Below the pieces are notes generated by a model, which saw only the letters and a program-made list of their open reading frames with translations, was not told the DNA's origin and did not search any database. A program made the translations under genes and the position numbers. This document shows positions 3,571 through 51,814 of a stretch of 64,000 nt of DNA, piece after piece. The stretch's first letter is position 1. Each line of letters begins with the position of its first letter. Source of the stretch: Somniosus microcephalus (lineage: Eukaryota); NCBI GenBank assembly GCA_052327205.1, contig CM126203.1, positions 303,428,001 to 303,492,000 of the forward strand, written 5' to 3'.

Positions 3571-6500
3571 CTACTGTAGAACTCAAAGGGTCAGTGGCCG
3601 ATAGAGTCTGTATTTCATCAATTTAATTGACTAACCAAAAACAATAAAAGACATAACAACTGCCCAGCAGGCACGTATCCCTAATCACATTTCATTATAT
3701 GAAAGTGCTGGAGTTTCTTTTTATTAATAAACTGATGTTAAGGTCATAGCTCATAATAGAGAACATCACCAAAGTTGAAGATGAGGTGCTGTTCCTTGAG
3801 TTTACGTTGAGCTTCCGTGGAACAATGCAAGAGGCCAAGGGTGGTGAGGTCCGAGTGGGAATGGAGTGGTGAATTAAAATGATAGGCGACCGGAAGCTCA
3901 GGGTCACCCTTCCGGACTGAATGGGGGTGTTCCGCAAAGCGGTCACCCAATGTGCGTTTGGTCTCCCCAATGTAGAAGAGACCGCATCGTGAGCAACGAA
4001 TACAGTATACTAGATTGCAAGAAGTACAAGTAAGTCGCTGTTTCACCTGGAAGGGGTGTTTGGGGCCCTGGACAGTGGGAAGGGGGGAGGTATAGGGGCA
4101 GGTGTTACATCTCCTGCGCTTGCACGGGAAGGTGCCAGGCAAAGGGCAAGGGGTGCTGGGGGTGAAAGAGGAGTGGACTAGGGTGTCTCGGAGGGAGCGG
4201 TCCCTACGGAATGCTGAAAGGGGAGGGGAGGGGAAGATGCGTTTGGTGGTGGGATCACTTTGGTGGTAGCGGAAATGGCGGAGGATGATCCGTTGAATGT
4301 GGAGGCTGGTGGGGTGAAAGGTGAGGACAAGGGGAACCCTATCGTGGTTCCGGGAGGGAGGGGCAGGGGTGAGGGCAGAAGTGCGGGAGATAGAATGGAC
4401 ACGGTCGAGGTCCGTATCAACCACGGTAGAGGGGAATCCTCGGTTGAGGAAAAAGGAAGACATGTCGGAAGCACTGGTGTGGAAAGTGGCATCGTCGGAG
4501 CAGATGCGGCGGAGACAGAGAAACTGGGAGAATGGAATAGAGTCCTTACAGGAGGCAGGGTGGGAGAAAGTGTAGTCCAGGTAGCTGTGGGAGTCAGTGG
4601 GCTTGTAGTGTATATTGGTCAATAACCTATCCCCAGAGATGGAGACGGAGAAGTCGAGGAAGGGAAGGGAAGAGTCAGAGATGGACCATGTGAAGGTGAG
4701 GGAAGGGTGGAAATTGGAGGCAAAGTGAATGAAATTGTCTAGTTCAGTGCGAGAGCAGGAAACGGCACCGATACAGTCATCAATGTATTGGAAAAAGAGG
4801 TGAGGGAGGGGACCTGAGTAGGACTGGAACAAAGAGTGTTCCACGAAAAGGCAGGCATAGCTAGGACCCATGCGGGTACCTATAGCAACACCTTTGATTT
4901 GGAGGAAATGAGTGGAGTTAAAGGAGAAGTTGTTCAATGTAAGAACAAGTTCAGCCAGGCGGAGGAGGATAGTGGTGGATGGGGACTGTTCGGGCCTCTG
5001 TTCAAGGAAGAAGCGGAGTGCCCTCAGGCCATCCTGGTGGGGGATGGAGGTGTAGAGGGATTGTACATCCATGGTGAAAGGAAGCGGTTGGGACCAGGAA
5101 ACTGGAAACTGTTAAAGTGGCGGAGGGCGTCCGAAGAGTCGCGGATGTAGGTGGGAAGAGACTGGACAAGGGGAGAAAAGATAGTGTCGAGATAGGAAGA
5201 GATAAGTTCCGTGGGGCAAGAACAGGCTGAAACGATGGGTCTACCAGGGCAGTCCTGTTTGTGGATCTTGGGAAGGAGGTAGAAGCGGGCTGTGCGGGGT
5301 TGGGGAACTATGAGGTTGGTGGCCATGGAGGGAAGATCTCCAGAAGAGATGAGGTCAGTGACAGTCTTGGAAACGGTGGTTTGATGTTCGGTAGTGGGGC
5401 CATGGTCCAGGTGGAGGTAGGAGGAGGTGTCGGAGAGTTGGCGTTCAGCTTCCGCTAGGTAGAGGTCAGTTCGCCAAACAACAACAGCACCACCCATGTC
5501 AGCAGGTTTAATGACAATGTCAGGGTTTGATCTAAGAGAATGGAGTGCTGCAAGTTCAGAGGGAGGTAGGTTGGAGTGAGTGAGGGGAGCAGAGAAATGG
5601 AGACGGCTGATGTCACGGCGGCAGTTAGCGATGAAAAGATCTAGAGAGGGTAAGAGGCCATGGGGAGGGGTCCAGGTAGAATGGGAATTCTGAAAGCGGG
5701 AGAAAGGGTCAGTCGTGCGGGGGAAGACGCCTGGCCAGAGAAGTGGGCATGGAGACGAAGGCGGCGGAAAAAGAACTCAACATCGTGCCGAGCTCGAAAT
5801 TCATTGAGGTGGGGGCGTAAGGGGATGAAGCTCAGGCCTTTGCTGAGGACTGATCATTCGGGGTCAGAGAGTGGAAGGTCAGAGGGGATAGTGAAAATGC
5901 GGCAGGGGGTGAGATTGGGAGAAGGGGGGTCAGAGGAAAGTGAAGGGGAAGAAGGTTCCGGAGGGGCGTTGGTGTCCAAGAGTTGATGAAGCTTGCGATC
6001 CTTGACATCGGAAAGGAAGAAAAAAAGTTTTTTGTTGAAGCGTCGGATCAGTCGAAGGATGAAATGGAACTGTGGACCCGGACAGCTTTAAGATAGAGTG
6101 CGCCGGTGTTGCTGAAGAGAGAGGTCGAAAGTGTTCATGTGGCGCCGCATGGCGTTGAGCGTGGATCTCAAGATGCGGCGAGAGCAGTAGTTCGAGGAAC
6201 GATGAATGTCTTGGAGATATTTGTAATCCTGGGTGGATCCGAAACACGAAGGGTGGAAGTTTAGTTGGAATCCACGTGGAATAAGTCGGAACCGGAGACA
6301 GTTGCTCAGGAAAATGATGTGGCTGTGAAACCGAGTCTTGGCAGATACCTGATCAAACACGAGAAGGGAAACTGAAAGTAATGAAGATGAACAAGTTTGA
6401 AGAGCCAAACGGCGATCCCGTCGAAGAGAAGAGCAGAACTTCTTCAAGGTAGGCATTCCTAGAAGAGGTGTGGCAGTGAACCAAACACTAGTACGATAGC

Positions 6501-6590
6501 AAAATACTGCAGATGCTGGAAATCCGAAATAACAACAGAAAATGCTGGAAAAACTCAGCAGGCCAGGCAACATCCGTGGAGAGAAATTAG

Positions 6591-6625
6591 AGTCGATGTT
6601 TCGGGTCTAACCCTTTTTCAAAACT
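6591..6625 (-). ncRNA. Minimal type I hammerhead ribozyme motif (U3-A8 variant) in Penelope pLTR
   Basis: Minus strand reads AGTT-TTGAAAA-A-GGGT(TAG)ACCC-GAAA-C-ATC-GACT; the GTC triplet has apparently decayed to ATC at a CpG. Confidence 0.65.
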
Positions 6626-6736
6626 GGAAAGGAAATGAAATAGATCGAAAGGCAGGGCTGAGAGAGAACAAAAGAAGTGAAGAGACATTAAGAGGTATTC
6701 AAAACCAGACAAGTTGGTGATAGGACTAGTGGAGAC

Positions 6737-6900
6737 AAAGATGTGCGGGTTAGGTTGATTGGCTATGATAAAAATTGACCCTTAGTGTTAGGGGGATTAA
6801 ATACGTGGGGTTATGGGGATCGGGTGGAATATGTGTCGGTGCAGGCTTGATGGGCCGAAATGGCCTCTATCTGCACTGTGGGGTTTCTGTGATTCTGTGA
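6737..6900 (+). mobile_element. 5'-truncated HE1-like V-SINE inserted in the Penelope 3' UTR
   Basis: Near-identical to the 3' half of the SINE at 29703-30049; absent from the Penelope copy at 18341-21066. Confidence 0.85.
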
Positions 6901-7558
6901 AAAGACGGCTCAGATTAGGTGTGAAATATTCTGGCAGATTGAGAGCTACCATGTGGGAGAGAGAAAAAAAAAGGAAGGGGCGGGGAGGGAAAAACCAAAA
7001 CAAAGGGGTGGATAAAAAATATAAGTAAAAATGTAATAGGGACCGAGGTTATGATCTGAAATTGTTGAACTCGATATTGAGTCCGGAAGGCTGTAAAGTG
7101 CCTAATCGGAAGATGAGGTGCTGTTCCTCGAGCTTACGTTGAGCTTCCGTGGAACAATGCAAGAGGCCAAGGATGGTGAGGTCCGAGTGGGAATGGAGCG
7201 GTGAATTAAAATGACAGGCGACCGGAAGCTCGGGGTCACCCTTATGGACTGAACGGAGGTGTTCCGCAAAGCGGTCACCCAATCTGCGTTTGGTCTCCCC
7301 AATGTAGAAGAGACCGCACCGTGAGCAGCGAATACAGTATACTAGATTGCAAGAAGTACAAGTAAATCGCTGTTTCACCTGGAAGGGGTGTTTGGGGCCC
7401 TGGACAGTAGGAAGGTTGTCATTAGGCTGGGTGTCAAACATCTGAACCAAAGCACAAGCACCAAGAGATAGCACTGTGCCAACACAAGCTGCCAACACTC
7501 GCACGCTACATAATAGAGGAAATAAGGGTCCGTGTGCGCGACTTAAACATTGTGCTGG

Positions 7559-9041: not shown

Positions 9042-12000
9042 TGTATTGATTTCTTTGTGGGTTCAATGACGAGACATTTATGAAAGAGAATGTCTTTTAA
9101 TCTAAAGTTTGTTCAACTCTGGTTAACAGCCTTACAGGAGACACCATGCTAGAAATCCATCTAAAACGAAACTAAAACTAAAACTGCTTGTCTCTGTCAC
9201 ATGCCCTCTGCTGGTCAGGCATAAGTAATCAATCAGGCAACTATGCTGGTAAGGCATCACAATCAAACAGGCAAATACCATCACTATTTGCTGATATCAT
9301 TACATCTCCCTTTCTTAAAACAAAAGTATTTTACTTTTAACTAACAACATGTTTTCTTTGTATTAATCTGCATTTTAACTGTAACACTTAATGAACTTAC
9401 ATTATCATTATCATGATCAAGGTTTTTTAACCTTGTTTTGTGTTCACATGAAATATGTAAATACACTAGAACTTGAAGAGAGAATAAGATAACATTACTT
9501 CCTTCTATAACAATAGTCCTTAAATTTGCTCAATGAGTCTCTCAGGAGGCTTCACGCGTCTTGAGGATTTTCTGATTGATTGTCCTTGAATCTGAGTTGT
9601 TGCCTCAGATGATTGGTTTTCAGCTGTGTGATCAGGTTGTTCAACAGTATCAGTCTTTTGACTTGCTGTGGCTGGTCCCATGAGAAGATCTCGACGATTT
9701 CTTCGCAGAACAGCACCCTCATCTGTCTGAATGGTGTATGATCTTGGTTGAACTTCATTCAGGACAGTTCCCTCCTGAGTCCATATGTTTGTTTTGTCTT
9801 TGAACCTTACTTGGTCACCAGTGTGGAGTTCAGGGAGGTTTTGTGTTCCTCTGTCATAGTAGTACTTTTGTTGTTCTTTGAACTTCCTCACTTTCTCCCC
9901 CTCTTTTGTTTTCAGGAGGTTCTCCGGGATGGGTAGGTTTGACCTTAGCAGACGTCCCATAAGGAGTTGGGCTGGTGACATACCACACTCGAGCGGCGTT
10001 GTGCGGTATACAAGCATGCTCTGGTGGAAGTCAGTTCCACTGTCTTTTGCCTTGTACATCAGTCTTTTCACTGTCTGGACCGATTTTTCCACTAGACCAT
10101 TGGACTGTGGAAAGTGAGGACTTGACGTTGTGTGGACAAAGTCCCACTCTTTGGCAAAGTGTCGGAAACTTGCATTGTAAAACTGGGGTCCGTTGTCTGT
10201 GAAGACCTCGCTTGCCACGCCATGTCTGGAGAATATGGCTTTCATACATCTTATCACAGCATCTGCAGTCTGCAGTGGTGGTGTACAGTCTACAAACCTC
10301 TGGATACAGGGAGTAATAGTCTGTGACTACAAGATAGTCCTTCCCTTGACATACGAATAGGTCAGCGCCTACCTTCTGGTAAGGTCTGTCTGGTGCTGGG
10401 TGTGGCTTTAGTGGTTCTACCGGATTGCTTGCTCGATATTTCAGGCATATTGTGCAGTTTGACACCTCATTTGTCACATCTTGGTTGATTCGTGGCCAGT
10501 ACATCACCTCTCGTGCTCTTTTCTTACACTTTGATTCCCAGATGTCCTCCATGGATCCTTTTTAGCATCTCTTTTCTCAGACTCTTTGGGATAACTATTT
10601 TACTTCCTTTGTAGATGATGTCTTCGACCACTGATAGTTCCGCCCTGCAGTTCCAGTACTCTGCCATGTCAGGTGAGCAGTCTTGCTTCATGTTGGGCCA
10701 TTCATCCAAGATGCTTTTCCTCAGTCATCTCATTGTTTCATCTTTGTTTGTCTCAGTCTTTATGAGCTCCATTTTTGCATCTGCTATGGGCAGTGCACTT
10801 GTGATCATGTCCACGTAGGCGTTCACTTTTTCATCCATTTTGGTGTTTGCGGGCTCACATGGATCAACAGCTCTGGACAACGTGTCTGCTGTATACGTCA
10901 GCTTACCCGGTGTGTACGCAACATTCAGTGTATAGCGTTGCAGCCTGATCATCATTCTTTGTATTCTAAGCGGACAGCTATTTAGTGGCTTTTGGAACAA
11001 TGCAATCAAAGGCTTATGGTCAGTCTCTACACTGATTGCTTGTCCTGCCACAAACTGGTGAAATCTTTCACAGGCGTATGTGATGCTGAGCAGCTCCTTT
11101 TCTATTTGAGCATATCGCGTCTCCGCGTCTGTCATTGAGCACGATGCATATGCAATAGGTTGCCAGTAGTCATATTTTTGCAGAAGAATGGCACCGAGCC
11201 CACTCTGGTGATGCATCTGATGATATCTTGATGGGTCTCGCTGGGTCATAAAACCTCAGAACTGGTTCCTCTGTGAGCAGTTTCTTTAGATCGCTCCATG
11301 ACTTCTCATGCTCATGATTCCATTCCCATTCTATGTTCTTTTCAGTCAGTCTTCTCAGTGGCGCCATCTTTTCTGAGAGGTTGGATATGAATTTACCCAT
11401 GTAGTTGATCATTCCATTAAACCTCTGCATGTCCTTTTTGCATTGTGGCTTTGGCATATTCTCAATGGCGGACACCTTTCTGGGATCTGGCCTGATGCCC
11501 TCACTGCTAAGGATATCTCCCACGAATGTCAGTTCTGTCACCCTGAGCTGGCATTTCTCTCTATTCAGCTTCAGGTTTGTTTTCCTTGTTGCTTCTAGCA
11601 CTTTTTTCAGTCTCTCGTCATGCTCAGTTCTCGTGGTTCCCCATACTATGATGTCATCCATTGATGTATCAACTCCCTCCAGGTGCTCATAGATCATATG
11701 GATAGTTTTGTGATACACTTCAGGAGCTGAGGCAATGCCAAATGGTAACCTTAGGAATCTGTATCTGCCAAATGGACTGTTGAACGTGCACAGTCTTGAA
11801 CTTGCCTCGTCCAATTTCATCTGCCAAAATCCTGATGATGCATCTAACTTGCTGAAATACTTTGCATTTGCAAACTGTGCCATGATTTCCTCACGTGTAG
11901 GAAGCTTGAAGTGCTCTCTCTTTATTGCTCTGTTTAGATCTCTTGGATCCAGGCAAATTCTGAGCTTTCCATTCTTTTTTGTCCACAACGACAAGGGAAC

Positions 12001-13761
12001 TCACCCACTCAGTTGGCTCATCTATCTTCTGAATCACGTTCAGGCTTTCTATCCTGTCCAACTCTGCCTTCAGTTGCTTTTGAAGAGCAAACGGAACTTT
12101 TCTGCATGGATGTATGACCGTTGGCATACTTTTATCTACTTTGATCGTGTGTTCTCCTGGAAGGCAGCCTAGACCCTGAAATAGGTCGTTGTACTCTTTC
12201 ATGAGTTCATCATAGACTGTCTCTCCTTCGCTTTCCACAACGAGGACTCTCTTTACCAGGTTCAGTCTCTCACAGGCTATTAAACCTAGTATGGCTTGCA
12301 CATCCTTTGGCACCACGATTAATGCTAGCGTGTGCTCTCTGTCCTTGTGTGTCACTTTGACAATGCATCTTCCTTTCACTGGTATATTAGTACCTGAGTA
12401 TCCTGTCACTTTCACTTTTATTCCATGTATCTTTGGTCTGGGTCTAATTTTCTTAAAATCAGTCTCTGATATCACATTAACTTGTGCTCCAGTATCCAAT
12501 TTAAATGGAATGTGTATGTCATTCACTTTTAGTGTCAACATCCGTCTCTTTTTTCTTCTTTGTTTTCAGACACAACATCTACATAGAACTCCTCTATCTC
12601 GCTTTCATCTACTGCATGGACCTTGCTTTGTTGCGCTTGGTTCTTGCAGCAACGGGCATAATGGTTGTTTTTGTTGCAACTATTGCATTTTTTACCATAT
12701 GCTGGACACTTTTTTGGTGGATGCTGTATACCGCATCGACTACATGACTTTCGATTGCCCCTTTCATTTTTGTTTGCTGGCCACGCCTCTTTTTTCACAT
12801 TGGCGCTCTTTTTGTTAAACGGTTTGTGTCCGTTCTTTCTCACTGCATCCACGTTGCAGCTACTGTCACTGAACAGCTCCTTTGCCTGCAACTTCATAGT
12901 CTCTGTAGCCCTACACAGTGCTATGGCTTTTCCCAGGTCTAGATTTTGTTCTCTTAGCAGTCTTTCCCTTAGACCATTATCTGAAATACCACACACCAGT
13001 CTGTCTTTTATCAGCGAGTCTGTCAGTCCCCCAAATTCACATGTTTTGCTTCGGTTTCTCAGTTCAGTCACATACTGATCAATATTCTCTCCCGTTTTCT
13101 GTATACATGTGAAAAATCTGTGCCTCTCAAACGTCACGTTACGTTTAGGTATGCAGTAGGCCTCAAACTGTTCCATTATTTTATCTAGCTTCATTTTGTC
13201 TCCATCAGCAGCGAATGTGAAGTTATTATACACCTCCAGCGCTTCATCACCCACGACATGTAAGAACACTGACGATTTCTTTTTATCACTTTTCTCGTCA
13301 GCTCCGATTGCCGCTAAATTTCAGCCACATTACCTGTCAACTGAAGCTTCGCCGGTGGGTGTAAACCTTCCATTTTTTACTTCGTTAGCTATTCTCCAAT
13401 GGTAAGTAACGATGTTCTCTTTTGGCTTGCTAATATGTGGAGAGCTGATTTAACTTCAGATTTTTCCTCTTCATCTCTTTCAATCACTTCTGACACCATG
13501 TATTGATTTCTTTGTGGGTTCAATGACGAGACATTTATGAAAGAGAATGTCTTTTAATCTAAAGCTTGTTCAACTCTGGTTAACAGCCTTACAGGTGACA
13601 CCATGCTAGAAATCCATCTAAAACAAAACTAAAACTAAAACTGCTTGTCTCTGTCACATGCCCTCTGCTGGTCAGGCATAAGTAATCAATCAGGCAACTA
13701 TGCTGGTAAGGCATCATAATCAAACAGGCAAATACCATCACTATTTGCTGATATCATTACA
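9042..13761 (-). mobile_element. Full-length Gypsy LTR retrotransposon (Mag-like), frameshifted
   Basis: 263-bp LTRs at 9042-9304 and 13499-13761 (4 differences by eye), TSD CCCTT, PPT next to 9304. Fragments encode Gag with Cys/His knuckles, protease DTGA, RT SMDD, RNase H and integrase. Confidence 0.95.
13485..13498 (-). promoter_or_regulatory. tRNA-Leu primer-binding site
   Basis: TGGTGTCAGAAGTG immediately after the 5' LTR, complementary to the 3' end of vertebrate tRNA-Leu(CAA). Confidence 0.85.
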
Positions 13762-16389: not shown

Positions 16390-18340
16390 TATCAGATCAG
16401 GACAAGATTCGGGCAATCCCAGTATAGTTGACCCTGCAAAGTCCTCCTCACCAACATCTATGGTCTAGTGCCCTAGTTGATAGAGCTGTTATATAGACTA
16501 GACAAGCAATAGCCTGATATAACCATACTTACATAATCATATCTTTTAGCCAACATCTCAGACACCATCCCTTCGCCACTGCACAGTCTTTTGAAGACAA
16601 ATCTTGTGTTCACAGTGAGGATACCCTCAATTGTGTAGCATAGCACTAACACCATGCTAAGTGGGACAGACTAAGGACAGATCTAGTAGCCTAAAACTGG
16701 GCATCGATGAGGCACTATATGCCATCAACAACAGCAGAATCGTCTACCATCACAATTTGTAACCTCATACCCAGGCACATCTGTCATGCAATCATCATCA
16801 AGCCGGAAGCCAAATATGGTTCAATGTGGAGTGCAGAAGGGTGTGATAGAAGTAGCACCACGCATACCTTCGAATGAGGCATCACCCTCGTGAAGCTACA
16901 ACAGCTACTTGTATGCTAAACACCTAAAGCAGCAGGTTATAGACAAAGATAAGCGGTTACATAATTAATAGATCAGAGCAAAGCTCTGTAGCCCTACTAC
17001 ATTCACTTGACAATAGTGATGTACAATTAGGTGACTAACGGGAGGAGTAGGCTCCTTGAACATCCCCATACTCAACCATGATGGAGTACAGTAAGTGAGT
17101 GTAACAGCTAAGAGTTTGCAAGTGTCTTCATCCAAAAGTGCCAAGTGAATGATCCTACTTTGCCTTCTTCCAAAGTCTCCACCATCATAGATGCCAATGT
17201 CTAGCTAATTCGTTTCTCTCCACGTGACATTAAGATGTGGCTGGGTATACTTGGCACAACAAAGGATATGGGCTTTGATAACATCCCGGCTATAGTGCTG
17301 AAGACCTGTGCACCAGAATTTACCATCCCATAGCCAAGCTATTCCATTGTAGCTATGATCCTGACAGCAGGTTTGTTCTATTCACAAGAAACAAGGAAAA
17401 ACAAATGTGGCCAATTGCTACCCTATTCATCCCCTTCCAATCATCAGCAAAGTGGCGGAAGAAGTAATCAATAGTGCCATCAAGTGCCATCTACTCACCA
17501 ATAATGTTTGCCAATGCTCAGTTCAGATTCTGCTAGCAGCATTTGGCTCCTGACCTTGTCACAACCTGGTCCGGACCTGGATAAAAGTGCTGAATGCCAG
17601 AGGAGAGCTGAGAGTAGCTGCTCTTGACAGTGAGGCAGCATTTGACCGATTATGGCACCAAGGGGCCCTAGCAAAACAGGTCAGTGGGGGCCATGGAAAA
17701 ATCCTCTAGTGGCTGGAGTTATACCTCATATACAGGAAGCTAGTCATGTTTGTTGGAGGCCAATCATCGCAGCCCCAAGACATTGCTGCAGAGTTCCTGA
17801 GGAAAATGCCCTTGGCCCAACCATCTTCAGGTGCTTCATCAGTAATCTTCCCTCTGTCATCAGATTGTTGCTGGGGCTGTTCCCTAATAAGTCTACAGTG
17901 TTCAACTCCATTTGCAATTCCTTCGAAAATGTCAGTCTATAGCAAGACCTGGACAACAACCAGGATTGTGCTGACAAGTAGCAGATAAGTGCCTGGCAAT
18001 GACCATCTCCAACTAGAAAATGTCCAACTGCCTCCTTCTGACTTTCAACAACATCACAATCACTCCCACCATCAGCATTCTGGGCATAACCCTGACCAGA
18101 AGCTTAACCGGACCAGCCATATCAACACCATGGCTGCAAGAGCAGGGTAAAGACTGGATAGTCTGTGACAAGTGGCTCACCTCCTGAACCCTCAAAACTG
18201 AAGTCAGAAGTGTGAAGAAGTATTCATCACTCACCTGGTTGGATCCAGCTGCAAGAACTACTGAAGAAGTTCAACACTGTTCAGGACAGAGAAATTTGCT
18301 TGATCAATGCAACTGCCACCAAACTTAATATTAATCTCCT
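16390..18340 (+). mobile_element. Old degenerate CR1-group LINE (RT remnant)
   Basis: Eroded RT-like motifs (e.g. GCTCTTGAC...GCATTTGAC, ALD..AFD-like) with many stops; resumes briefly after 21083. Confidence 0.6.
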
Positions 18341-21066
18341 AAAAACATTTTTTCTTCCTTTCCGATGTCAAGGATCGCAAGCTTCATCAACTCTTGGACT
18401 TGGACACCAACGCCCCTCCGGAACCTTCTTCCCCTTCACTTTCCTCTGACCCCCCTTCTCCCAATCTCACCCCCTGCTGCGTTTTCACTATCCCCTCTGA
18501 CCTCCCCCTCTCTGACCCCGAACGATCAGTCCTCAGCAAAGGCCTGAGCTTCATCCCCTTACGCCCCCACCTCAATGAATTTTGAGCTCGGCATGATGTT
18601 GAGCTCTTCTTCCGCTGCCTTCATCTCCGTGCCCACTTCTCTGGCCAGGAGTCTTCCCCCCGCACGACTGACCCTTTCTCCCGCTTTCAGAATTCCTGTT
18701 CTACCTGGATCCCTCCCCCTGGCCTCTTACCCTCTCTAGATCTTTTCATCGCTAACTGCTGCCGTGACATCGGCCATCTCCATTTCTCTGCTCCCCTCAC
18801 TCACTCCAACCTACCTCCCTCTGAACTTGCAGCACTCCATTCCCTTAGATCCAACCCTGACATTGTCATTAAACTTGCTGACAAGGGTGGTGCTGTTGTT
18901 GTTTGGCGAACTGACCTCTACCTAGCGGAAGCTGAACGCCAACTCTCTGACACCTCCTCCTACCTCCACCTGGACCATGAACCCACTACCGAACATCAAA
19001 CCACCGTTTCCAAGACTGTCACTGGCCTCATCTCCTCTGGAGATCTCCCCCCCGCGGCCACCAACCTCATAGTTCCCCAACCCTGTACAGCCCGCTTCTA
19101 CCTCCTTCCCAAGATCCACAAACAGGACTGCCCTGGTAGACCCATCGTTTCAGCCTGTTCTTGCCCCACGGAACTTATCTCTTCCTATCTCGACTCTATC
19201 TTTTCTCCCCTTGTCCAGTCTCTTCCCACCTACATCCACGACACTTCGGACGCCCCCCGCCACTTTAACAGTTTCCAGTTTCCTGGCCCCAACCGCTTCC
19301 TTTTCACCATGGACGTACAATCCCTCTACACCTCCATCCCCCACCAGGATGGCCTGAGGGTGCTCCGCTTCTTCCTTGAACAGAGGCCCGACCAGTCCCC
19401 ATCCACCACTATCCTCCTCCGCCTGGCTGAACTTGTTCTCACATTGAACAACTTCTCCTTTAACTCCACTCATTTCCTCCAAATCAAAGGTGTTGCTATG
19501 GGTACCCGCATGGGTCCTAGCTATGCCTGCCTTTTCGTGGGATATGTGGAACACTCTTTGTTCCAGTCCTACTCAGGTCCCCTTCCTCACCTCTTTTTCC
19601 GATACATTGATGACTGTATCGGTGCCGTTTCCTGCTCTCGCCCTGAACTAGACAATTTCATTCACTTTGCCTCCAATTTCCACCCTTCCCTCACCTTCAC
19701 ATGGTCCATCTCTGACTCTTCCCTTCCCTTCCTCGACTTCTCCGTCTCCATCTCTGGGGATAGGTTATCGACCAATATTCAATACAAGCCCACTGACTCC
19801 CACAGCTACCTGGACTACACTTCCTCCCACCCCGCCTCCTGTAAGGACTCTATTCCATTCTCCCAGTTTCTCCGTCTCCGCCGCATCTGCTCCGACGATG
19901 CCACCTTCCACACCAGTGTTTCCGAGATGTCTTCCTTTTTCCTCAACTGAGGATTCCCCTCTACCGTGGTTGACACGGCCCGCGACCGTGTCCGTTCTAT
20001 CTCCCGCACTTCTGCCCTCACCCCTGCCCCTCCCTCCCGGAACCACGATATGGTTCCCCTTGTCCTCACCTTTCACCCCACCAGCCTCCACATTCAACGG
20101 ATCATCCTCCGCCATTTCCGCTACCTCCAAAGTGATCCCACCACCAAACGCATCTTCCCCTCCCCTCCCCTTTCAGCATTCTGTAGGGACCGCTCCCTCC
20201 GAGACACCCTAGTCCACTCCACTATCACCCCCAGCACCCCTTCCCCTTCGCCTGGCACCTTCCTGTGCAAGCGCAGGAGATGTAACACCTGCCCCTGTAC
20301 CTCCCCCCTTCCCACTGTCCAGGGCCCCAAACACCCCTTCCAGGTGAAACAGCGATTTACTTGTACTTCTTGCAATCTAGTATACTGTATTCGCTGCTCA
20401 CGATGCAGTCTCTTCTACATTGGGGAGACCAAACGCAGATTGGGTGACCGCTTTGCGTAACACCTCTGTTCAGTCCGTAAGGGTGACCCCAAGCTTCCGG
20501 TCGCCTGTCATTTTAATTCACCGCCCCATTCCCACTCGAACACATCATCCTTGGCCTCTTGCATTGTTCCACGGAAGCTCAAAGTAAACTCGAGGAACAG
20601 CACCTCATCTTCCGATTAGGCACTTTACAGCCTTCCGGACTCAATATCGAGTTCAACAATTTCAGATCATAACCTCGGCCCCTATTACATTTTTACTTAT
20701 ATTTTTTATCCACCCCTTTGTTTTGGTTTTTCCCCCCTCCCCCCTTTCCTTTTTTTTCTCTCTCCCACATGGCAGCTGTCTCTCATTCTGCCAGAACATG
20801 TCACACCTTATCTGAGCTGGCTTTTGTCTCCACTAGTCCTATCACCATCTCGTCTCGTTTTGAATACCTCTTAATGTCTCTTCACTTCTTTTGTTCTCTC
20901 CCAGCCCTGCCTTTCAATCTATTTCATTTCCTTTCCAGTTTTGAAAAAGGGTTAGACCCGAAACGTCGACTCTAATTTCTCTCCATGGATGTTGCCTGAC
21001 CTGCTGAGTTTTTCCAGCATTTTCTGTTGTTATTTCGGATTTCCAGCATCTGCAGTATTTTGCTAT
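18341..21066 (+). mobile_element. 5'-truncated Neptune-type Penelope element
   Basis: Same family as 3777-7415: RT YIDD, GIY-YIG, stop near 20672, 3' UTR. Flanked by a 17-bp TSD CTTAATATTAATCTCCT (18324-18340, 21067-21083). Confidence 0.93.
20937..20971 (+). ncRNA. Minimal type I hammerhead ribozyme (U3-A8 variant)
   Basis: AGTT-TTGAAAA-A-GGGT(TAG)ACCC-GAAA-C-GTC-GACT: stem I AGTT/GACT, stem II GGGT/ACCC, GUC cleavage triplet. Confidence 0.72.
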
Positions 21067-21139
21067 CTTAATATTAATCTCCTTCAGCACTGTGGCTACG
21101 TGAAGTCGAGCAAATGATCAAAATTCCTTCAAAAGCCCC

Positions 21140-24145: not shown

Positions 24146-24686
24146 TATTTATTTTTCACAAATTTGTATTTGAAGGGTTCTCTGGGGGTCTACTGCAGAA
24201 GTTTTCCTATTCCTAGTGGTCTGAATCTGATTCCTTACTCCTGGGGTACACATTAATATTTACTGCTGGTCTAGTAGTGAGGAGAACATTTTTTGTTTGT
24301 GGAGGTTCAGTTCCTCATGATCTGATGACAGTGCATTCCAAATGTGCCTCTCGTGTTCTGAAGGATTTGACTTTGATTTGACTAATCAAAGATTTGTACT
24401 TTGGGCCTTCAGGAGCTAAAAAAACTTTAAATCCCATTTCTACTGGACTGACTGCTAACTTTTTGAAAGCTGGATTGTAGAGTCATTTTCAGTTTTTTGT
24501 GTGATCATCAAAGTAAGAGATTTTAATGCTGGGAATTGCAGTACTTGCCATTTTGGGAACTAGTGTCAGCATCAAGCATTCCTAGATCAGGTGTAGCACA
24601 GTTAGGTACAAAGTAACAAAATCAGAACATGTTGGAAACCCTCAGCAGGTGAGGCAGTATCAGTAGAGAGAACAGAGCAATTAACA

Positions 24687-24933
24687 CAATAGCAAAATAC
24701 TGCGGAACAACGGAAAATGCTGGAAACGCTCAGCAGGCCAGGCAGTATCCATGGAGAGAGAAACAGAGTTAATGTTTCAGGTCTGTGACCCTTCGTCAGA
24801 ACTGGGAAAAGTTAGAGATGTAACAGGTTTTAAGCAGGTGCAGAGGCAGAGAAAGTGATGGGGGGGGGGCGGGGGTGGTGGTGGGGGTGGTGGGAAGGAA
24901 TACAAGGGATGGTCTCTGCCTGATGGAAGGCAG
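24687..24933 (-). mobile_element. Short Penelope 3'-end (pLTR) insertion nested in an older Penelope tail
   Basis: 12-bp TSD GAGCAATTAACA (24675-24686, 24934-24945); tail homologous to 20972-21066. Confidence 0.8.
24767..24803 (-). ncRNA. Minimal hammerhead ribozyme motif (canonical C3-G8 core)
   Basis: Minus strand reads AGTT-CTGACGA-A-GGGTC(ACA)GACCT-GAAA-C-ATT-AACT. Confidence 0.7.
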
Positions 24934-26160: not shown

Positions 26161-29100
26161 TAAACTTGGTATTTGTTTTTAAGATTTCTGGAAGATTTTG
26201 GTATTTTCTCCCCTTCCCTCGTTAGTTGTCCTTGCTGCATGCATTATACTGGGAAAATAGTTAGATGACCAGCTCATTTGGCAGGCACCAGTGACCTTAC
26301 CGCTGGGAGTTGCAAATACGTGACCTAAGCTGTTGAGTCCGAGTTTTCCAAATGTAGTTATGCTGAATAACTGGACACAGACAACAGAATACTTAAACAG
26401 GTCTTTAGTAATTGCGGGTCAGGGCTGAACTGAAATACAAACTGCTCCACAGGGTTTATATACCGGTGTGGTCACCACCGGTACTACAATATACAGGAGC
26501 CATCAGAAAGTAGTTCATCACCTTAAGGTAGTCTCTTAAGGTGGTACAGGTTACATACACTACAATTCCTCCCCTTTTAGCTTAACAGTGTACACCCCAA
26601 TTTAAACATAACATGGATAACATATATACAACTTTCATACAAAACTGTTCAAAGATTCAGTCTCCGAGGAGGCCTCCTGATCCGGGCCGGATAACGCCTT
26701 TCAGGGGTCTCTGGTTCTCGTTGCTGGGGTGACTCATCCATTGGATCTCTTATGGATTGAACATCATCATGTACGTTCGAGTCTGAGGTAGATGCTACAG
26801 GCTCAATAACTTCTTCAACTGGTGTCTCTGCCGTAGACATGGGGTCGACCCTTGTTCTCGATTCCACAAGTTGGTCAGCATGACGTCGTATTACGTTCTC
26901 ACCAACGTCTACCGTGTACATCAAGGGTCCTTGTCGGGCACGAATTGTTCCGGATTGCCATTTATCATTCCTATAGTCCCTGGTCAACACTGGTTGTCCT
27001 ATTTCGAAACTCCGAGTGCCCTTGTTATTTACGTGCTGGAATTGTTTGTTTTCGACTTCCCTACGCACATTGGGTTTTAACAAATCCAATCGGGACCGCA
27101 ACCTCCTGTTATAGAACATTATGGCAGGGCTTTGATTTGTCACTGCATGCGTGGCGTTTCGATATGCCATCAGGAAATTGTTCACCTTGTGTTGTAGTGG
27201 AATATGGTCTTCGCTCATAGCCTTTATCGCCTTTTTGAACGTTTGTACAAATCTCTCGGCCAACCCATTTGTAGCCGGATGATATGGGGCAGATGTATAG
27301 TGTTTCACCCCATTCTTCTTCATGAATTTCTGGAATTCTTCTGACACGAACTGTGGTCCGTTGTCTGAACATATTTGTTCCGGCAGCCCATTCCTTGCAA
27401 ATATGGTTCTTAGAACTGCGATCGTCTTTTCAGAGGTAGTGGTCGACATCTTAATCACTTCTGGCCATTTAGAATGTGCGTCTACCGCTATCAAAAACAT
27501 GGAATCCATGAATGGACCTGCAAAGTCGATATGCACACGTTGCCATGGGGTTGAAGGCCATTCCCACGGATGCAGCGGTGCAATTGGAGGTGCATTTTGA
27601 ACTTTTTGGCACCCTGAGCAGCTTTTAGTCAGATCCTCTATTTGTTTGTCGATACCTGGCCACCACACAAGCCCTAGCAAGGCCTTTCATCTTGACTCCC
27701 CCCAGATGACCTTCATGCAGTTCCTTCAGAACTCTCTCCCTTAATTTAGGAGGAATAATCACCCTTGTTCCATACATCAATGTTCCTTGACAGACGGACA
27801 GCTGCTCTCGTCTGGCTGAGAATGCCGGTAACAGTGGTTCGCCATGTGTTGGCCATCCCTTCACTGTCAAATCGTAGACCCGAGACAGTGTCGGGTCATT
27901 TCTGGTCTCTCTCTCAATACTCGCATTGGTGACTGGTAAGCATTCGATGATGGTCGAGTGAAATATCTCGACAGGGTCAACTGCCGGTGCCTCTTCCGCT
28001 GCAGGTAGTGGCAGGCGCGACAGCCCATCAGCATTACCATGTTGCTTTGTACCTTTGAATTCGATATCATATTGATGTGCCCCTAGGAAAAGGGACCATC
28101 TCTGAAGCCTCTGCGCCGTCATAACCGGAACACCCTTCTTAGGGTTAAAGATGGAAACCAACGGCTGGTGATCTGTCAGCAGCGTAAACCTTTGGCCTTG
28201 CAGGTAATGGTTAAATTTCTTAACTCCCCACACGAGGCTGAGAGCCTCCCTATCTATCTGAGCATAGTTGCGCTCAGCGGAGGTCAATGATCTGGATGTG
28301 AACGCGACTGGCCTTTCCAAGCCATTTGGCAACTTATGTGAAAGCACTGCCCCGATAACATATGGAGAAGCATCACAAGCTAAACGAATAGGCAGCGTTG
28401 GGTTAAAGTGAGCCGACACTTCCTTAGAGGTGATCAGTGCCTTACTTTTTGAAAAGCCCGCTTACAGTCCTCGCTCCACTTCCATGGTACTCCCATTTGC
28501 AAAAGAGTGTTCAGCGGGTGTAACACCGTGGATAAATTTGGAAGAGACTTGTGGTAATAGTTAATCAACCCAAGGAACGACCTCAACTGGGATACATTTT
28601 CCGGAGCGGGAGCTTTCACAACAGCTTCGATCTTGTCAGGTGACTTATGAAGCCCCTCCTGGTCAATGATGTGACCGCAGTACGAGATTCGCTTCTGAAA
28701 GAACTCACATTTCTGGCGATTAACTCTGAGTCCATATTCTTTCAATCTGGTGAGCACCTGCTCCAAATTCGCGAGGTGTTCCTTATCATCATCTCCTGTA
28801 ATCAGAATGTCGCCCAGGTAGCATTGTGTGCCTGGAATTCCCTGTAATACCTGCTCCATGGCCCTTTGCCAAATCGCTGGAGCCGATGCCACTCCAAAAA
28901 CCAGTCTATTATACCGATATAAGCCCTTATGTGTGTTGATCGTGAGATACTGGCGTGACGCTTCATCAACTTCCATCTGTAAGTACGCCTGTGCCAGGTC
29001 TATCTTGGTGAAGTGTTTCCCGCCAGAGAGCGAAGCGAAGATATCCTCAATCCGCGGAAGTGGATATTGCACCGTGTGAAGAACCGGATTAACAGTGATC

Positions 29101-29702
29101 TTGAAATCGCCACAGATGCGAACCTTCCCAGGTTCCCCCGGCTTGTTGCTCAACGAACGCTTCATGACGGGAACAATGGGCGTGGCCCATTCGCTCCAGT
29201 CCACCTTTGATAGTACTCCTGAATGTTCTAGCCCTTCCAGCTCTGCTTCCACAGCAGGTCGTATCGCATAAGGTACCGGTCTGGCTTTGAAAAATTTTGG
29301 GTTTGCATGTTCTTCAACCTTGATGTTTGCCATAATTCCTTTCAGTGTTCCCAGTCCCTGTTGGAACACCTCCTTAGCATCGTCCAATATTTTGGACAGT
29401 CGTTTAGGTTTGACGTCGTCCTCTTTACAGGAATCTACAGTTAGTGCTTGTAAGGAATGCCAGTCCATATTTATTCTCCAGATCCATTCCCGTCCCAGTA
29501 GTGGTGGACCTCCCTCAGGTAACACATACAAGTCCATTCCCTGACTTTCTTTACCATTGTAGACCACGTTTACCTTTATCTTTCCGATGGGGTATACTCT
29601 TTGCCCCGTGTATGTTTTCAATACAATCTCCGTATCCCTCAGGGGAATGTGTGAGAATAACCTTTTGTACTCTTGCTTATTCATGACTGTCAATGCCGAT
29701 CC

Positions 29703-30049
29703 AGTGGCATAGTGGTTAGCACTGTTGCCTCACAGCGCCAGGGACCCGGGTTCGAATCCAGCCCCGGGCAACTGTCTGTGTGGAGTTTGCATATTCTCCC
29801 CGTGTTTGCGTGGGTTTTCTCTGGGTGCTCCGGTTTCCTCCCACAGTCCAAAGATGTGCGGGTTAGGTTGATTGGCTATGATAAATTGACCCTTAGTGTT
29901 AGGGGGATTAAATACGTGGGGTTACAGGGATAGGGTGGGATATGTGTTGGTGTAGGGGTTACAGGGATCGGGTGGGATATGTGTCGGTGCAGGCTCGATG
30001 GGCCGAAATGGCCTCTATCTGCACTGTGGGGTTTCTGTGATTCTGTGAT
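29703..30049 (+). mobile_element. Near full-length HE1-like V-SINE
   Basis: A box TGGCATAGTGG, B box GGTTCGAATCC (29749-29759), V-domain GTGTGGAGTTTGC..TTCTCCCCGTG, CR1-like tail (TTCTGTGA)n. Confidence 0.88.
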
Positions 30050-30086
30050 CCTGCTATCCGAAGCATGACCCAGATAGTTTGGTGGT

Positions 30087-33000
30087 TGAAATAAAGAATA
30101 GATTTGCCTTCCAAAGCTAGGCTTTATTAACTTTAAAATCTGCAGCACATCTTCCCACATCCAGTCCCAACCAAAGCTGGAAAAGAACTGAATTTAAGGT
30201 GGCCACAACACATCATGTGATCATCAACTACCAATGAGATTACAACATATATCCCAAGGCAGTTAACAAACAACCAATCACAATACTTTTACTAAACAAG
30301 GAATAATCACCACATTCACCCCTCCTTTTAAAATATACTCCAACCTAAATAACCTTTACAATTTATAATTAATTATTTACAACTAAAACTATGCACAACA
30401 AGAATAAAACTGTTCACATGACACAATACTAAATGAACAACAACAAATAGTAACATTGCACATAAGTATTAAGTATCTCTCAACTAAAACAATATACTAT
30501 AATATTTCAACAATTTTAAAACATTACTATCAATTTAAAAGTCCATTTTCAATCGGTCGACCGGATATCTTGTTCGTGTCGACCTTCTTAACCTTGGTGA
30601 AATTCCTTGCCCTCCCACACCAGAAGGCACAGAAGTATCTTCAGCAGGAAGGCTATCCATATCCCGATTTTCCACGGTTTCCGGATTAGAAATCCCATCA
30701 GAAGGTAAACTGGGACGGTCATAAACATCTATCAAGGGCTGACTAAGAGAAGTATAATTATCTGCAATCGGATTGGAAATATTCGTAGTATCTGTAACAG
30801 CATCCACATTATCTGAATCATGACTATTGTTAATATCCTCAGAAGAGGGCTGGCCCCCACAAGGAGCCAAGTCTTTAATTGAAACAGTACTTTCTTTCCC
30901 ATCTTGGAATCGAATATGAGCATATTGGGAATTTGCCTCCAACAGCTCCACCTCCTCCACCAAAGGATCATATTTTGACAATCTAACATGGCGTCGAAGC
31001 AGCACAGGTCCCTGCATAGTAAGCCATGAAGGTACCGAATATCCCGTAGTAGATCTCCACGGATAGTTAAAGAGCCATTCATGGGGGGTCACATTAGTAG
31101 CCGTTGAAAGCAATGATCTAATGGAATGCAGGGCATCAGGCAGTACCATTTCCCACTGTGTATTCTTAAGGTTCCGGGATGTCAAAGCCAACATAACTGC
31201 CTTCCAGATCACCCCATTGTATCGTTCGCACTGTCCATTACCCTGGGGATTATACAGGGTAGTTCTACTAGTAGAAATTCCCCGACTCTGAAGGTATTCC
31301 TTCAACTGGGAAGACATAAAAGAACTTCCCTGATCCGATATACGCAGGCATCCCAAAGATGACAAAAAGTTGAGTCAGACATTTAATAACTGTAGCAGCT
31401 GATACATCTGCACAAGGAAAAGCAAAAGGGAACCTTGAAAACTCATCCACAACAGTAAATATATATCGGTTTTGAGTAGTTGAAGGAAGAGGCCCCTTAA
31501 AATCGACGCTCAAACGTTCAAAAGGAGAAGTAGCCTTTATAAGATGAGCTCGTTGAGGCTTAAAGAAATTCGGTTTACACCGAGCACAGATAAAACATGA
31601 TGAAGTCATCCGCTTGACGTCTTCAACTGAAAAAGGCAAGTTCTTACTGCGTACAAAGTGTATCATCCTCGTAACCCCAGGATGACATAAGGCATTGTGA
31701 AGATTAATAAGCGTATCTCCGTGAATCACAGAACAATAAGCCCTCGACAGTGCATCAGCAGCAACATTATCCTTCCCCGGACGATAAACTATGTCAAAAT
31801 GGTAACATGTCAACTCAATCCTCCATCTCATTATTTTATCATTTTTGATCTTTCCAAAATGTTTAACATCAAACATAAAGGACACAGATTTTTGATCAGC
31901 TACCAACGTGAAATGTCGCCCCGATAAATAATGTCTCCATTTACGCAATGCTTCTACTATTGCGTATGCCTCTTTATTGAAGAATGTCTTTTTTCACTAT
32001 TGTTCAAAGTACGTGAGAAAAAGGCCACAGGTCTTCCATTTTGGTTCAGAGTAGCCCCAATTGCAAAATCCGAAGCATTCGTCTCGATCACAAAGGGAAC
32101 CTGCTCATCAATAGAATGCACAACTGCTCCTAAAATATCCTTTTTAAAATTCTCAAAACATGTCCTGGCCTCCCATGATAGAGGATATGTTGTAACCCGA
32201 ATAAGAGGCCGGATCTTCCGTGAAAAATTTGCAATCCAATTAGAATAATAAGAAAACAGTCCAACAACTCGTTGCAAAGCCTTAGAATTAGTAGGACAAG
32301 GTAAATCAATCAATGGTCGCAGACGTTCTGGATCTGGTTTAATCTTGTTTCCCGAGATAATATACCCCAATAGATTTACCTCAGTAGTCGAAAAGATACA
32401 TTTCTCTTTGTTAAAAGTTAAACCAACTTTTTCCGCAGCTTGAAGGAATCTTTTAAAATTAGAATCATGCTCCACCCTTGATTTGCCACACACTGATGTC
32501 ATCTAAGTATGAAAAGGTGTCAGAGAGGGAGTTATCACTTATAAAAGCATCCATTGCCCGTTGAAAACAAGCAACACCATTAGTAACACCAAATGGTATT
32601 CGGCAAAACTGATACAGCTTTCCACCAGCCTCAAAGGCCGTATATGGTTGATCCTTCTTAACAATAGGAATCTGATGATAAGCACTCTTTAAATCAATAG
32701 TGCTAAAAACCTTATACTGAGATACTTTGTTGATAAGCTCATCAATCTTAGGCAAAGGGTACGCATCTAATTGAGTATACCTATTAATAGTTTGGGAATA
32801 GTCTGTCACCATTTGTTTCTTGTGTCTCTCGTTAGTCGTGACAACTACCTGTGCTCGCCAAGGCGAACAACTAGGTTCAATGATTCCTTCCAATAAGAGA
32901 CGTTGAACTTCAGAATTAATAAATTCTCTATCCTGACTACTATATCTTCTTGACTTGATAGCAATTGGCTTATAATCCGACATCAAATTGGAAAAAAGTG

Positions 33001-34514
33001 ATAATGGAGAAATAGATAAAGAGGTTAATCCACAAATAGATAAAGGTGGCTTAGTCCCTCCAAATGAAAGACTAAGAGACTCGTGTAACTGAAGCACATC
33101 ATGTCCAATCAAAATATCCGCACAGAGATTAGGCAAAACAGATAGGCGTATATCAGTATATGTATTACCTAGAAGAATCATTTTCACAAAGCAACAACCA
33201 GCTATTTGTGAAGTAAGGGTCGTCTGAGCCATACACACCTGATACGTAACAGGCGAAATTTTCAAATGCTTCTCCTTCGCAAACTGAAGACTTATAAAAC
33301 TCAGTACTGCCCGTATCTATAAGGGCCTTCACTTCCAACCCATTAACTTGAGCCGTAACTATAGCTTTGTTTAGGCCATGAGCAAATGCAGCAGAAATTG
33401 ATGCAATAAACGCCCTATCTAAAGGCTGAATAGTCACAGAGGAGGTAGTGAAGGAGGACCCTCCCACACCAGGAGAGGAGGAGGTAATTGAACCTGATGA
33501 TTTGCACACACGTGCATAATGACCTCTCTTGCTGCATTTACTACACACAGCCTCCCGAGCAGGACACTTCAGACGAGGGTGCCGGATATTCCCACAAAAA
33601 TAACACTTCTGAATCCTAGAGGCAACAGCCGCCGAAGTAGAAACTGTTTCAGAATCTAGTAAACCACTCCCATTAAGTCCACATAATTCCTTTTCATCCG
33701 AAACTGCCAAAACCATAGTCGCAGGCCGATTAAAAAGAGCATAAGAATCCGAACTTCTCTGAGCCACATCCAATGTAGAAGCTTGCTCAAAAGCACTTTT
33801 AAGATCCAAAGCCTTATTTTCTAACAACCGCTGACGAATTGATCTAGACAGTAATCCATTAATAAAAGCATCCCGTACCGATTCTTCCTTATATTCTTCA
33901 GCCGTCACGGCCTTATAATTACAGTTAACACTAAGGCACCGAAGTGCTTGTAAATAAGTATCCAAAGATTCTCCCACCTGCTGCCTACGGGCAGATAGAA
34001 GGTGACGTGCAAATACCTCATTCTTTGGTTTAACAAAAATCTTTTCCAATGTAGAAATAGCCACTTCATAAGTTTTACAGTCCAAAATATATTTATATAC
34101 ATCCGGAGCAATGTAGTTGATCAGCATATTCAGCTTATTTAGAGACTCTTGATCCAACACGCCCAAAAAGTTTTTAAATGTACAATACCAATGTTTCCAT
34201 TTATCATCCACTCCAGCAGAATTGGGGTCAGCCTTGAATCGTTCTGGTTGAAGATATCGCTCCATTCTAACATAAAGTTAATAAATTGAAATAAAGAATA
34301 GATTTGCCTTCCAAAGCTAGGCTTTATTAACTTTAAAATCTGCAGCACATCTTCCCACATCCAGTCCCAACCAAAGCTGGAAAAGAACTGAATTTAAGGT
34401 GGCCACAACACATCATGTGATCATCAACTACCAATGAGATTACAACATATATCCCAAGGCAGTTAACAAACAACCAATCACAATACTTTTACTAAACAAG
34501 GAATAATCACCACA
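30087..34514 (-). mobile_element. Nested Gypsy element with identical LTRs, no tRNA PBS, frameshifted gag-pol
   Basis: 228-bp LTRs at 30087-30314 and 34287-34514, TSD GTGGT, PPT next to 30314. Five ORF pieces (34265 to 30535) are homologous to the ORF at 43475-47248. Confidence 0.95.
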
Positions 34515-36809
34515 GTGGTCTGCTGTGTTACCCACATTATGTATTTTTAGACAACCCGGTTCCTTACTGCTGGAGTCTGAATCCGTCTTTTGTTCATCCG
34601 AACTGTTCTCTGTCACCTTGTGTACTTTCTTGTACTTCTCCTGCGGCGACTTTTTGTTGCTGGTCTTCTTTCCTGACCGGCATACTTTCGCTATGTGACC
34701 AAGTCTGCCACATTTCCTGCATTCTTTATCTTTGAACCAGCACTGGTTCTGACCATGCGCTGTCCTTCCGCAACGATAACACTTTACTGCACCCAATGCC
34801 ATTTCATTGGTGCTGAATTCCGATGGCCTTTGCTGCATTTCCGCAGTGCCTCGTGCTGCTGCCTCGTGCGATGCTGCAATGCTGAAAGCTTTGTCCAGCG
34901 TAAGATCCTTTTCCTCTAGCAGTCGCTTCTGGGTTCCTTCCTTTAGTAGCCCACACACGAACTTATCTCTCAGAGCGTCTGCTAGTCCTGTACCGAACTG
35001 ACAGTACTTTGATAACTTGCGCAGTTCGATTAAGAATTCAGCGTTGCTTTCCTCTTTAAGCTGAGTTCTTTTGTAAAATTTAAATCGTTCCGCTATCAGC
35101 AGCGGCGTGGGGTTTAAATGCTCTTGCAGGATAGTAACAATCTCCGCGAAACTCTTTCCTACCGGTTTATCTGGTGTTACAAGGTGCCTTAATAACCCGT
35201 ACGTCTTCGCACCCATCGAGTTTAATATGGTTAGTGCTTTCTTATCCGCCAGTACCTCATTCGCTGTACAGTAAACTTTAACGCGTTCCACATAAGTGGC
35301 CCAATCTTCTACATCGCTATCAAAAGCAGTGATGTTACCCGTTTTTGGCATCTTGTTGAGTTTCCTTTATTTTATTTATTTTTCCAAAATGGCGGCTTCC
35401 CGCGCTTGGTGGCTTTTCCCGTGCTTATCTTCTTCCCCCGCCGACTAAAATGGCGATTACCGCGCTGTTGCCGTTCTCGCCTCCCAGCTGTCCTTATTTC
35501 CCCCGACGCTGCTGCTCTTGTTCCCCGCCGCTCCCGCGATCCTCGTGGACATTAACGCTTTTCTGGCTGCTGCGCGTCTCTGCCCGGTTGCAGTCCGGCC
35601 CTTTTCACCGGCTGCGGTCGTGTTCTCCGCCCTTTTCTTCGGTTTCCCTCCCCTTCTCCCACTGACAACTCGGCCGACTTTCTCTCCGTGTCGCTAGATT
35701 GGGCTTACCCGCCGCTGTCGTAGAAGGGATGATCACTGCCTGTTGCTGATGGTGGACTTCGTGGCCAGCAATTCCAAACCGGGTTCTCGATGCCTCCCGT
35801 GCGATGCGGTGCTCAGCAGGATGATGAGGGCGGATGCCCCTTTTCGACGCCCGTTCTGAGGACGAAGCTTCCTTGGATGCAAAACTGCCGCTAGGTACGA
35901 TCAGACTCATCGCCACTGTTGAGTCTGTGTTTTCCAAATGTAGTTATGCTGAATAACTGGACACAGACAACAGAATACTTAAACAGGTCTTTAGTAATTG
36001 AGGGTCAGGGCTGAACTGAAATACAAACTGCTCCACAGGGTTTATATACTGGTGTGGTCACCACCGGTACTACAATATACAGGAGCCATCAGAAAGTAGT
36101 TCATCACCTTAAGGTAGTCTCTTAAGGTGGTACAGGTTACATACACTACATAAGCTGACTCTCCTTCTGGTTCCCTTTCTTGGGGATAAGCTTATGGCTA
36201 GGGGATGTGACTTGTCTCTATTAGAACCAATCAGAAACCTGAATTTTTACTGCCTCCAGGACTTTTTTGTGCAAACTTGTGATATTTGGATCGCAAATTA
36301 AGTCACAGAGATAAAACTGGGAAATGAAGCTTGCCACGTGGGAAATGGAAGATAGAAGCCGAAGAAAGACCGCTGTTGATAGGCTCACTGAGACTTCTGA
36401 TGTTCTGTTCTTCCATGCTGTGTTTTTATTATTTTAATGTATCTCATAACCGTAAAGAGTTCTTTCAAAGGATGGTGGAAGTGACAGTTTGTAAACCAGT
36501 CTATGTACAACATGAATTCATGACATAGCTTTGAGATTCATCAGTGCTTAGATCTTTGAAAAAGAGCTGCTTCCTTTGGAATTACAATTTCGGTCTATAG
36601 ACTATAAACATAAATACTCTGAAGTCTAGCAGACACTATAGCAATTTGAAAAGATATGATTGCATTAATATGTTATGAACAAACTGTTTAGTGAATGGAA
36701 TATTATTTGTCAAATGGTTTGGTTATGTGTTATGTACATTCCAAACCCTCTTGCTTTAAAAACTGTGTTTGTCTGGTGATGCCTGAGGCTGTCCACAGGA
36801 CTTTGAGGG

Positions 36810-43022: not shown

Positions 43023-43130
43023 TCACAGAATCACAGAATCACAGAAACCCCACAGTGCAGATAGAGGCCATTTCGGCCCATCGAGCCTGCACCGACACAT
43101 ATCCCACCCGATCCCCGTAACCCCTACACC
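43023..43130 (-). mobile_element. HE1-like SINE 3' fragment
   Basis: Reverse complement of about 29950-30049 with (TCACAGAA)3 tail. Confidence 0.85.
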
Positions 43131-51687: not shown

Positions 51688-51814
51688 TTGTTTGGCTGTG
51701 GAGCATTGGCACAAATTACCCTCAGCAGGGGTACACATGGACAGTTTTTGACTGTTAATTTTGCCTTCGGATTTGCAGTGATGCTCGGTGTACTCCTGGC
51801 TGGCCAAGTCTCAG
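51688..51814 (+). CDS. aqp3: AQP3-type gene, downstream copy, exon 2
   Basis: TTACAG acceptor, GT donor at 51815, 127 bp. Encodes [42 protein letters not shown]. Confidence 0.93.

Follow-up and report, generated by a model that had tools for sequence, protein, structure and literature searches.

Minimal hammerhead ribozymes of Penelope-like elements (PLEs) cut poorly even as dimers (PMC4209133), and the role of the hammerhead in Penelope elements is stated as open (PMC8557442, PMC11167929). U3-A8 cores are reported for the PLE hammerheads of Schistosoma, with about 1,300 hits, and among the Cercyon PLEs of Schistosoma mansoni the supplementary row S. mansoni(4) carries the core UUGAAAAA (PMC4209133). 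The same supplementary alignment holds a U3...G8 core, UUGAAGAA, in row (1), a PLE hammerhead of Saccoglossus kowalevskii; it is a single row, uncommented in the alignment, with no copy number, age or activity given there (PMC4209133). Natural U3-A8 hammerheads were also described as active by Perreault et al. (2011), who called the same covariation compensatory; the section concerned does not tie it to a PLE lineage or describe a wobble successor (PMC3088659). The U3-A8 variant itself is therefore already published and is not new (PMC4209133, PMC3088659). We have found no paper on a natural U3·G8 PLE lineage; earlier kinetics or a mention of U3·G8 may exist.

Poseidon PAc of Anolis carolinensis has its hammerhead at the junction of pLTR and ORF (PMC11167929). 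This ribozyme cuts only with the protein: C3G and G8C mutants are inactive, combining the two partly restores cutting, and mutants with a dead ribozyme can still insert in vitro. Insertion ends of PAc lie away from the cut site, and two internal reverse-transcription starts give a 30-40-nt tail (PMC11167929). When mutants of one type III hammerhead were scanned, the G3-C8 swap alone rescued activity, the other single and double mutants of the motif being low (PMC9901934), and in viral 5' UTRs hammerhead cutting has been linked to translation start (PMC13725137).

The window (the whole 64,000-nucleotide stretch of Somniosus microcephalus DNA that was analysed) contains two Penelope-like elements with hammerheads and a short third copy, annotated as follows.

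18324..18339, plus strand: left copy of a 16-bp target-site duplication, identical to 21067-21082
18340..21066, plus strand: element B, Penelope-like and 5'-truncated, with a broken ORF (RT, Cx4CxxC linker, GIY-YIG), 3' UTR, hammerhead and tail; ends set from the target-site duplication
20937..20971, plus strand: minimal type I hammerhead with U3-A8 core and GUC triplet, predicted cut between 20967/20968; matches the min-HHR consensus of PMC4209133
20937-20940, plus strand: 5' strand of stem I
20941-20947, plus strand: core TTGAAAA, U3 being 20941 and A8 20946
20948, plus strand: extra unpaired A between 9 and 10.1
20949-20952/20956-20959, plus strand: stem II, 4 bp with a 3-nt loop
20960-20963, plus strand: GAAA
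20964-20967, plus strand: C15.2-G16.2-U16.1-C17, with an ACGU palindrome at 15.2-16.2 in place of helix III
20968-20971, plus strand: 3' strand of stem I
20968..21066, plus strand: sequence after the predicted cut, that is, the next unit's ORF start and the PLE 'tail'
21067..21082, plus strand: right copy of the 16-bp target-site duplication
3777..7415, minus strand: element A, Penelope-like, a partial tandem of EN end, UTR, hammerhead and then a broken ORF from the ATG at 6573-6571, ending in the EN region
6591..6625, minus strand: second U3-A8 hammerhead, core as in 20937-20971; G16.2 decayed to A, which breaks the palindromic dimer helix
24767..24803, minus strand: short copy of an older subfamily with the C3-G8 core CTGACGA; G10.1·U11.1, A16.2 decay and an AUU triplet

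The copy at 20937-20971 has the features by which a minimal hammerhead is recognized: a core that is CUGANGA or the described U3-A8 variant, GAAA, an unpaired base after position 9, stem II closed by G10.1-C11.1 (G-C in 26 of 27 in-register loci), a palindromic 15.2-16.2, an NUH site and a short stem I of 4 bp, three Watson-Crick pairs and one U·G. A loose descriptor returns five candidates in the 64-kb window, three being the copies listed above, and the exact 34-mer of the motif has 974 genome matches against 0 for its reversed control, so that the motif is not a product of chance. Rfam detects no hammerhead, whether the window or the surroundings of the motif are searched. The minimum free energy fold of the monomer retains stem II and favours another outer helix by 0.3 kcal/mol, while an unconstrained cofold of two copies pairs them through a longer palindrome, not as the catalytic dimer; these energies are blind to the tertiary pair. 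On its anatomy we regard 20937-20971 as confirmed to be a minimal type I hammerhead of a Penelope-like element with an inherited U3-A8 core, its cleavage being predicted. An earlier note on this DNA had read a Penelope minimal hammerhead here, the TTGAAAA core in both long copies and CTGACGA in the tail at 24767-24803, and had pointed out that a CUGANGA search is blind to the TTGAAAA core; all of this stands.

The host elements have the organization of EN+ Penelope-like elements: a single ORF with RT plus GIY-YIG at the C terminus, partial tandems (element A), inverted junctions and two peaks of 3' ends. The domain matches in the window fall just under the cut-offs (RVT_1 in the ORF of element B, Pfam E 9.7e-6, below the curated cut-off; GIY-YIG in element A, E 3.1e-4, also below) and the ORF is intact in a relative elsewhere in the genome, L458. 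The Cx4CxxC linker is found in the window ORFs and in L458; a Cx2-5CxxC linker between RT and EN is shared by Neptune and Nematis (PMC8557442). The lineage would thus be Neptune-type, a name given for the linker and for Neptune's reported presence in vertebrates. A non-LTR retrozyme was ruled out, as the units are ~3.15 kb long and coding, not short non-coding repeats. With only one motif in element B and G16.2 lost in element A, neither window copy is likely to be an actor itself. Element B ends ~99 nt beyond the predicted cut, where the second of the two 3'-end peaks has its edge.

Short tail pieces from older subfamilies, none with a complete hammerhead, lie at 24618-24671, 51220-51273 and 54922-54975. 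A short repeat in the UTR of element A (near 6740-6900) is unrelated to the element and recurs beside two LTR-type elements, at 29849-30053 and 43026-43130. The window also holds four Gypsy-type LTR retrotransposons, assigned on ORF motifs, at 9042-13761, 26330-36150, 30086-34514 (nested within the preceding one) and 43160-47550, the last with two LTRs of 292 bp that are identical and an open frame of 1,270 aa. The ORFs at 55715-61061, accompanied by short tandem repeats, resemble a Harbinger/PIF transposase and its partner, and a minus-strand ORF at 51547-51942 contains an apparent aquaglyceroporin exon, suggesting an intronic region.

Compared with the described systems, the hammerhead at 20937-20971 shares with the Cercyon PLEs an identical core in the S. 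mansoni(4) row, the extra base after A9, G10.1-C11.1, the palindromic 15.2-16.2, the short stem I and the pLTR location (PMC4209133). It differs in belonging to a vertebrate Neptune-type lineage, in which the order of core states is resolved and the U3-A8 copies have a younger and larger U·G successor. With PAc it has in common the position at the pLTR-ORF junction, ends that lie away from the cut site and, set against the 30-40-nt tail of that element, 3'-end peaks ~35 nt apart; PAc, however, has a C3-G8 core and its ATG inside the ribozyme (PMC11167929), whereas here the ATG lies 21 nt past the cut and the linker is of the Neptune type.

Exact matching in one fixed context on both strands yields, genome-wide, 21,266 C3-G8, 13,412 U3·G8, 4,570 U3-A8 and 1,496 C3·A8 copies, with 0 for the reversed controls of all four; these counts are lower bounds that omit copies mutated elsewhere or with other stem II starts. 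The 4,570 copies make U3-A8 at 20937-20971 an inherited state, not decay. U·G cores are about three times as numerous as U-A cores and form uniform subfamilies with their own loops, which argues against decay as their source too. C·A is a different matter. C7 is missing in just 126 of the 1,496 C·A copies, the 100 of these among the matches listed showing mixed loops; the other 1,370 are in CpG context, and the C·A share of C7 parents is, by eye, roughly 10%, resembling CpG decay at G16.2 (~13 of 100 among the matches listed). Given the CpG context and this similar share, C·A copies are explained by post-insertion CpG decay plus point mutation. No amplified C·A subfamily was found, an absence that rests on one lineage with few state changes.

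Samples anchored on the flanks, with the core left free, give the same division. In the window's own grade 25 of 30 loci are U-A, with one C·A, one U·G and three out of register, and ~95 of the first 100 among the matches listed in this grade are U-A by eye; in the young family 27 of 30 are U·G, with one U-A and two out of register. Defined by flanks, the window's U-A grade comprises 3,736 copies and the young U·G family 11,527, and a small side group with a U·G core occurs among 164 copies with U-A-type flanks. A C3-G8 core in the U3-A8-type upstream context has 0 matches.

The order of the states was read from trees (103 and 124 rows) that cover the EN end, the UTR and the tail and in which positions 3 and 8 were masked. 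They omit tandem or duplicated copies and those whose homologous upstream DNA is shorter than 200-300 nt; the samples are non-random, mostly first-listed copies of contig 1 with some hand-picked, and subfamily recombination could distort the order. The C-G copies branch at the base, next comes a grade of U-A copies, and the young U·G copies are one clade nested within that grade, with support of 99/77 (103 rows) and 98/88 (124 rows, where the bootstrap was not fully settled) and a 100/99 stem shared with one U-A copy. In EN-coding DNA alone (41 rows) the U·G clade has 100/96 and short tips. Monophyly of U-A is rejected with p-AU 4.8e-6 in 60 rows (31 of 52 U-A, 16 of 28 young U·G and 12 C-G together with L232, those with C·A or from the side U·G group being excluded), the test group having been named after the earlier tree was seen. 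On average, pairs of copies differ in the 58-nt tail by 0.047-0.099 (C-G groups), 0.040-0.042 (U-A) and 0.013-0.027 (U·G). In the 124-row tree C·A copies scatter (10 rows, 8 changes), and the second, small U·G group is positioned elsewhere within the U-A grade; A8 has thus changed to G at least twice in amplified branches, in the young clade (11,527 copies) and in the side group among 164.

The core pair has therefore passed from C-G to U-A to U·G, and the wobble clade is both the youngest and the larger. That branch went on spreading after the change to U·G, so that elements can spread without a perfect core pair. The first step may have been less direct: copy L232, in which U3, C7 and G8 occur together with the older GUU site, branches as sister to the remaining U3 copies (100/98), and this one locus hints at a route from C-G through U·G to U-A. 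The combination U3, C7, G8 was seen in 2 of 20 copies examined, one of them L232.

Changes within the motif look as if the fold were under selection, in that those of amplified subfamilies keep it. In these subfamilies a constant stem II bears many different forms of loop II, and pair 2.1-1.1 is U-A or U·G. Pair 10.1-11.1, a second pair to change stepwise, is A-U or G·U in old subfamilies (L433-L442) and G-C in later ones, and the cleavage site triplet goes from GUU to GUC across the series. The loss of one base on both strands of stem I is found in 129 exact copies, against 52 and 4 with each loss alone; this paired deletion (L317, L443-L457) marks a side branch of the U-A grade with a 3-bp stem and the core still in register. 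Catalytic letters, NUH site and ACGU palindrome are unchanged in all amplified subfamilies seen, a comparison that is partly circular because one copy set was found by patterns; in the flank-anchored samples G5, A6, A9, G12-A14 and U16.1 vary in scattered copies only. With hand-summed path lengths, the 15 other core positions unchanged since C3U give P ~0.08 at 0.166 changes/site, not significant alone, and the 13 positions unchanged over the whole series give P ~4e-4. The 58-nt coding tail is slow as well, with 5% between U-A and young U·G copies.

In all six tandem regions that were read, two motifs lie 3,133-3,176 bp apart around the RT-EN ORF, and the first ATG comes 21 nt after the predicted cut. 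One of the six, L458 (C1:17550800-17555200), which is one of five U·G units, carries an unbroken ORF of 955 aa flanked by two U·G motifs, so that the U·G branch looks autonomous. Insertion ends are not gathered at the cut site. The 3' ends fall 54-115 nt past the predicted cut in 153 of 154 distinct U-A and U·G copies, in two peaks ~35 nt apart, and the remaining copy continues past the cut into the ORF. The 5' ends show no pile-up at the predicted cut, with 48 there against 24 (+4) and 40 (-2) at neighbouring positions by exact patterns in the young family only; among the loci inspected at these three positions 26 of 30, 15 of 24 and 26 of 30 were true boundaries. A cleavage footprint in the insertion ends is rejected on these counts. 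Among sequencing runs recorded as RNA none contains the stretch, and contigs from four runs presumed to be RNA match mainly the shared tail.

On balance we favour the reading that the motif is a weak cutter aided by a second copy or by the element's protein, in which the fold and a pairable pyrimidine-purine 3-8 are probably kept, Watson-Crick pairing at 3-8 being dispensable. Two motifs of one tandem transcript would join by the ACGU palindrome, or a single motif would be folded by the RT-EN protein. Motifs paired or folded in this way would cleave some of the RNAs after GUC and so shorten the message to a point just before the start codon, and uncut RNA would be the template for insertion. 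That only pairable states were amplified, despite 1,370 CpG-made C·A copies, would fit selection for a pairable 3-8. With an ATG 21 nt past the predicted cut, a link to translation start, as in the viral case, may be regarded as a lead only. A more far-reaching version we put forward tentatively, as a possibility that we do not expect to hold: Penelope hammerheads might be deliberately weak, protein-gated switches before the start codon, not cutters that make ends, with the C-G, U-A, U·G series a matter of tuning and the weakest-paired core in the most successful recent autonomous branch.

The main alternative, conceivable though in our view unlikely, is a ribozyme that has had no catalytic activity since C3U, the fold being kept as a protein-binding or translation-start element before the ATG or merely riding with master copies. 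The wobble core of the most successful young clade would fit such a history, as would insertion ends that ignore the cut on both sides. So would the in vitro insertion of dead Anolis mutants (PMC11167929), the spread of Naiad PLEs without hammerheads (PMC8557442) and the low activity of core variants other than G-C in one type III scan, by which U-A and U·G may be nearly dead (PMC9901934). A dead fold, however, would leave unexplained why catalytic letters, NUH site and palindrome have not changed in amplified subfamilies, why C·A was never amplified from so many available copies, and why the paired deletion in stem I preserves the register of the core.

Distinctly less probable is what the earlier note had proposed, that the family-fixed C3U+G8A is a compensatory swap implying selection for cleavage, taken here in the strict form in which efficient cutting depends on a Watson-Crick 3-8. 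In its favour, U3-A8 is fixed in an amplified grade numbering about 4,600 copies (25 of 30 loci anchored on the flanks), C·A failed to amplify, natural U3-A8 hammerheads have been described as compensatory and active (PMC3088659), and basal L232 fits a route via wobble. Against it, A8 reverted to G in amplified branches on at least two occasions, and the young U·G clade, which descended from U-A and outnumbers it ~3:1, holds an intact ORF. If U·G counts as a mismatch, mismatched cores are at least as common as paired ones in young copies, at 27 of 30 loci, an outcome by which the note itself said its reading would be refuted. Watson-Crick pairing of 3-8 as a requirement is thus largely refuted.

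Directly before the motif, at 20915-20938, runs a pyrimidine tract ending in CAG, a possible splice acceptor that is kept in most subfamilies; a splice acceptor has been described for Penelope of Drosophila virilis. That the changes at 3 and 8 are synonymous in a reading frame through the motif, or are due to such an acceptor upstream, is very improbable: in some subfamilies the frame from position 3 is open into the ATG, with the changes on Leu and Lys codons, and most loci have the pyrimidine-rich run and CAG (249 of 285 at >=80% pyrimidine), but the entire UTR is pyrimidine-rich, no conserved donor site was seen by eye, and a reading-frame constraint is excluded since the offset of the frame is 0, 1 or 2 depending on the subfamily, and in that of the window loop II contains an in-frame stop.

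Taken by itself the U3-A8 motif contributes little, and the main value lies in the natural series: one genome offers a dated succession in which a single lineage has had three core pairs, every one of them represented by thousands of copies. Its largest young class, the 13,412 U3·G8 copies, would escape descriptors that admit C3-G8 or U3-A8 alone. Together with the intact, autonomous-looking unit with a wobble core, the series provides natural material in which cleavage, assistance by the protein and the start of translation can be compared.
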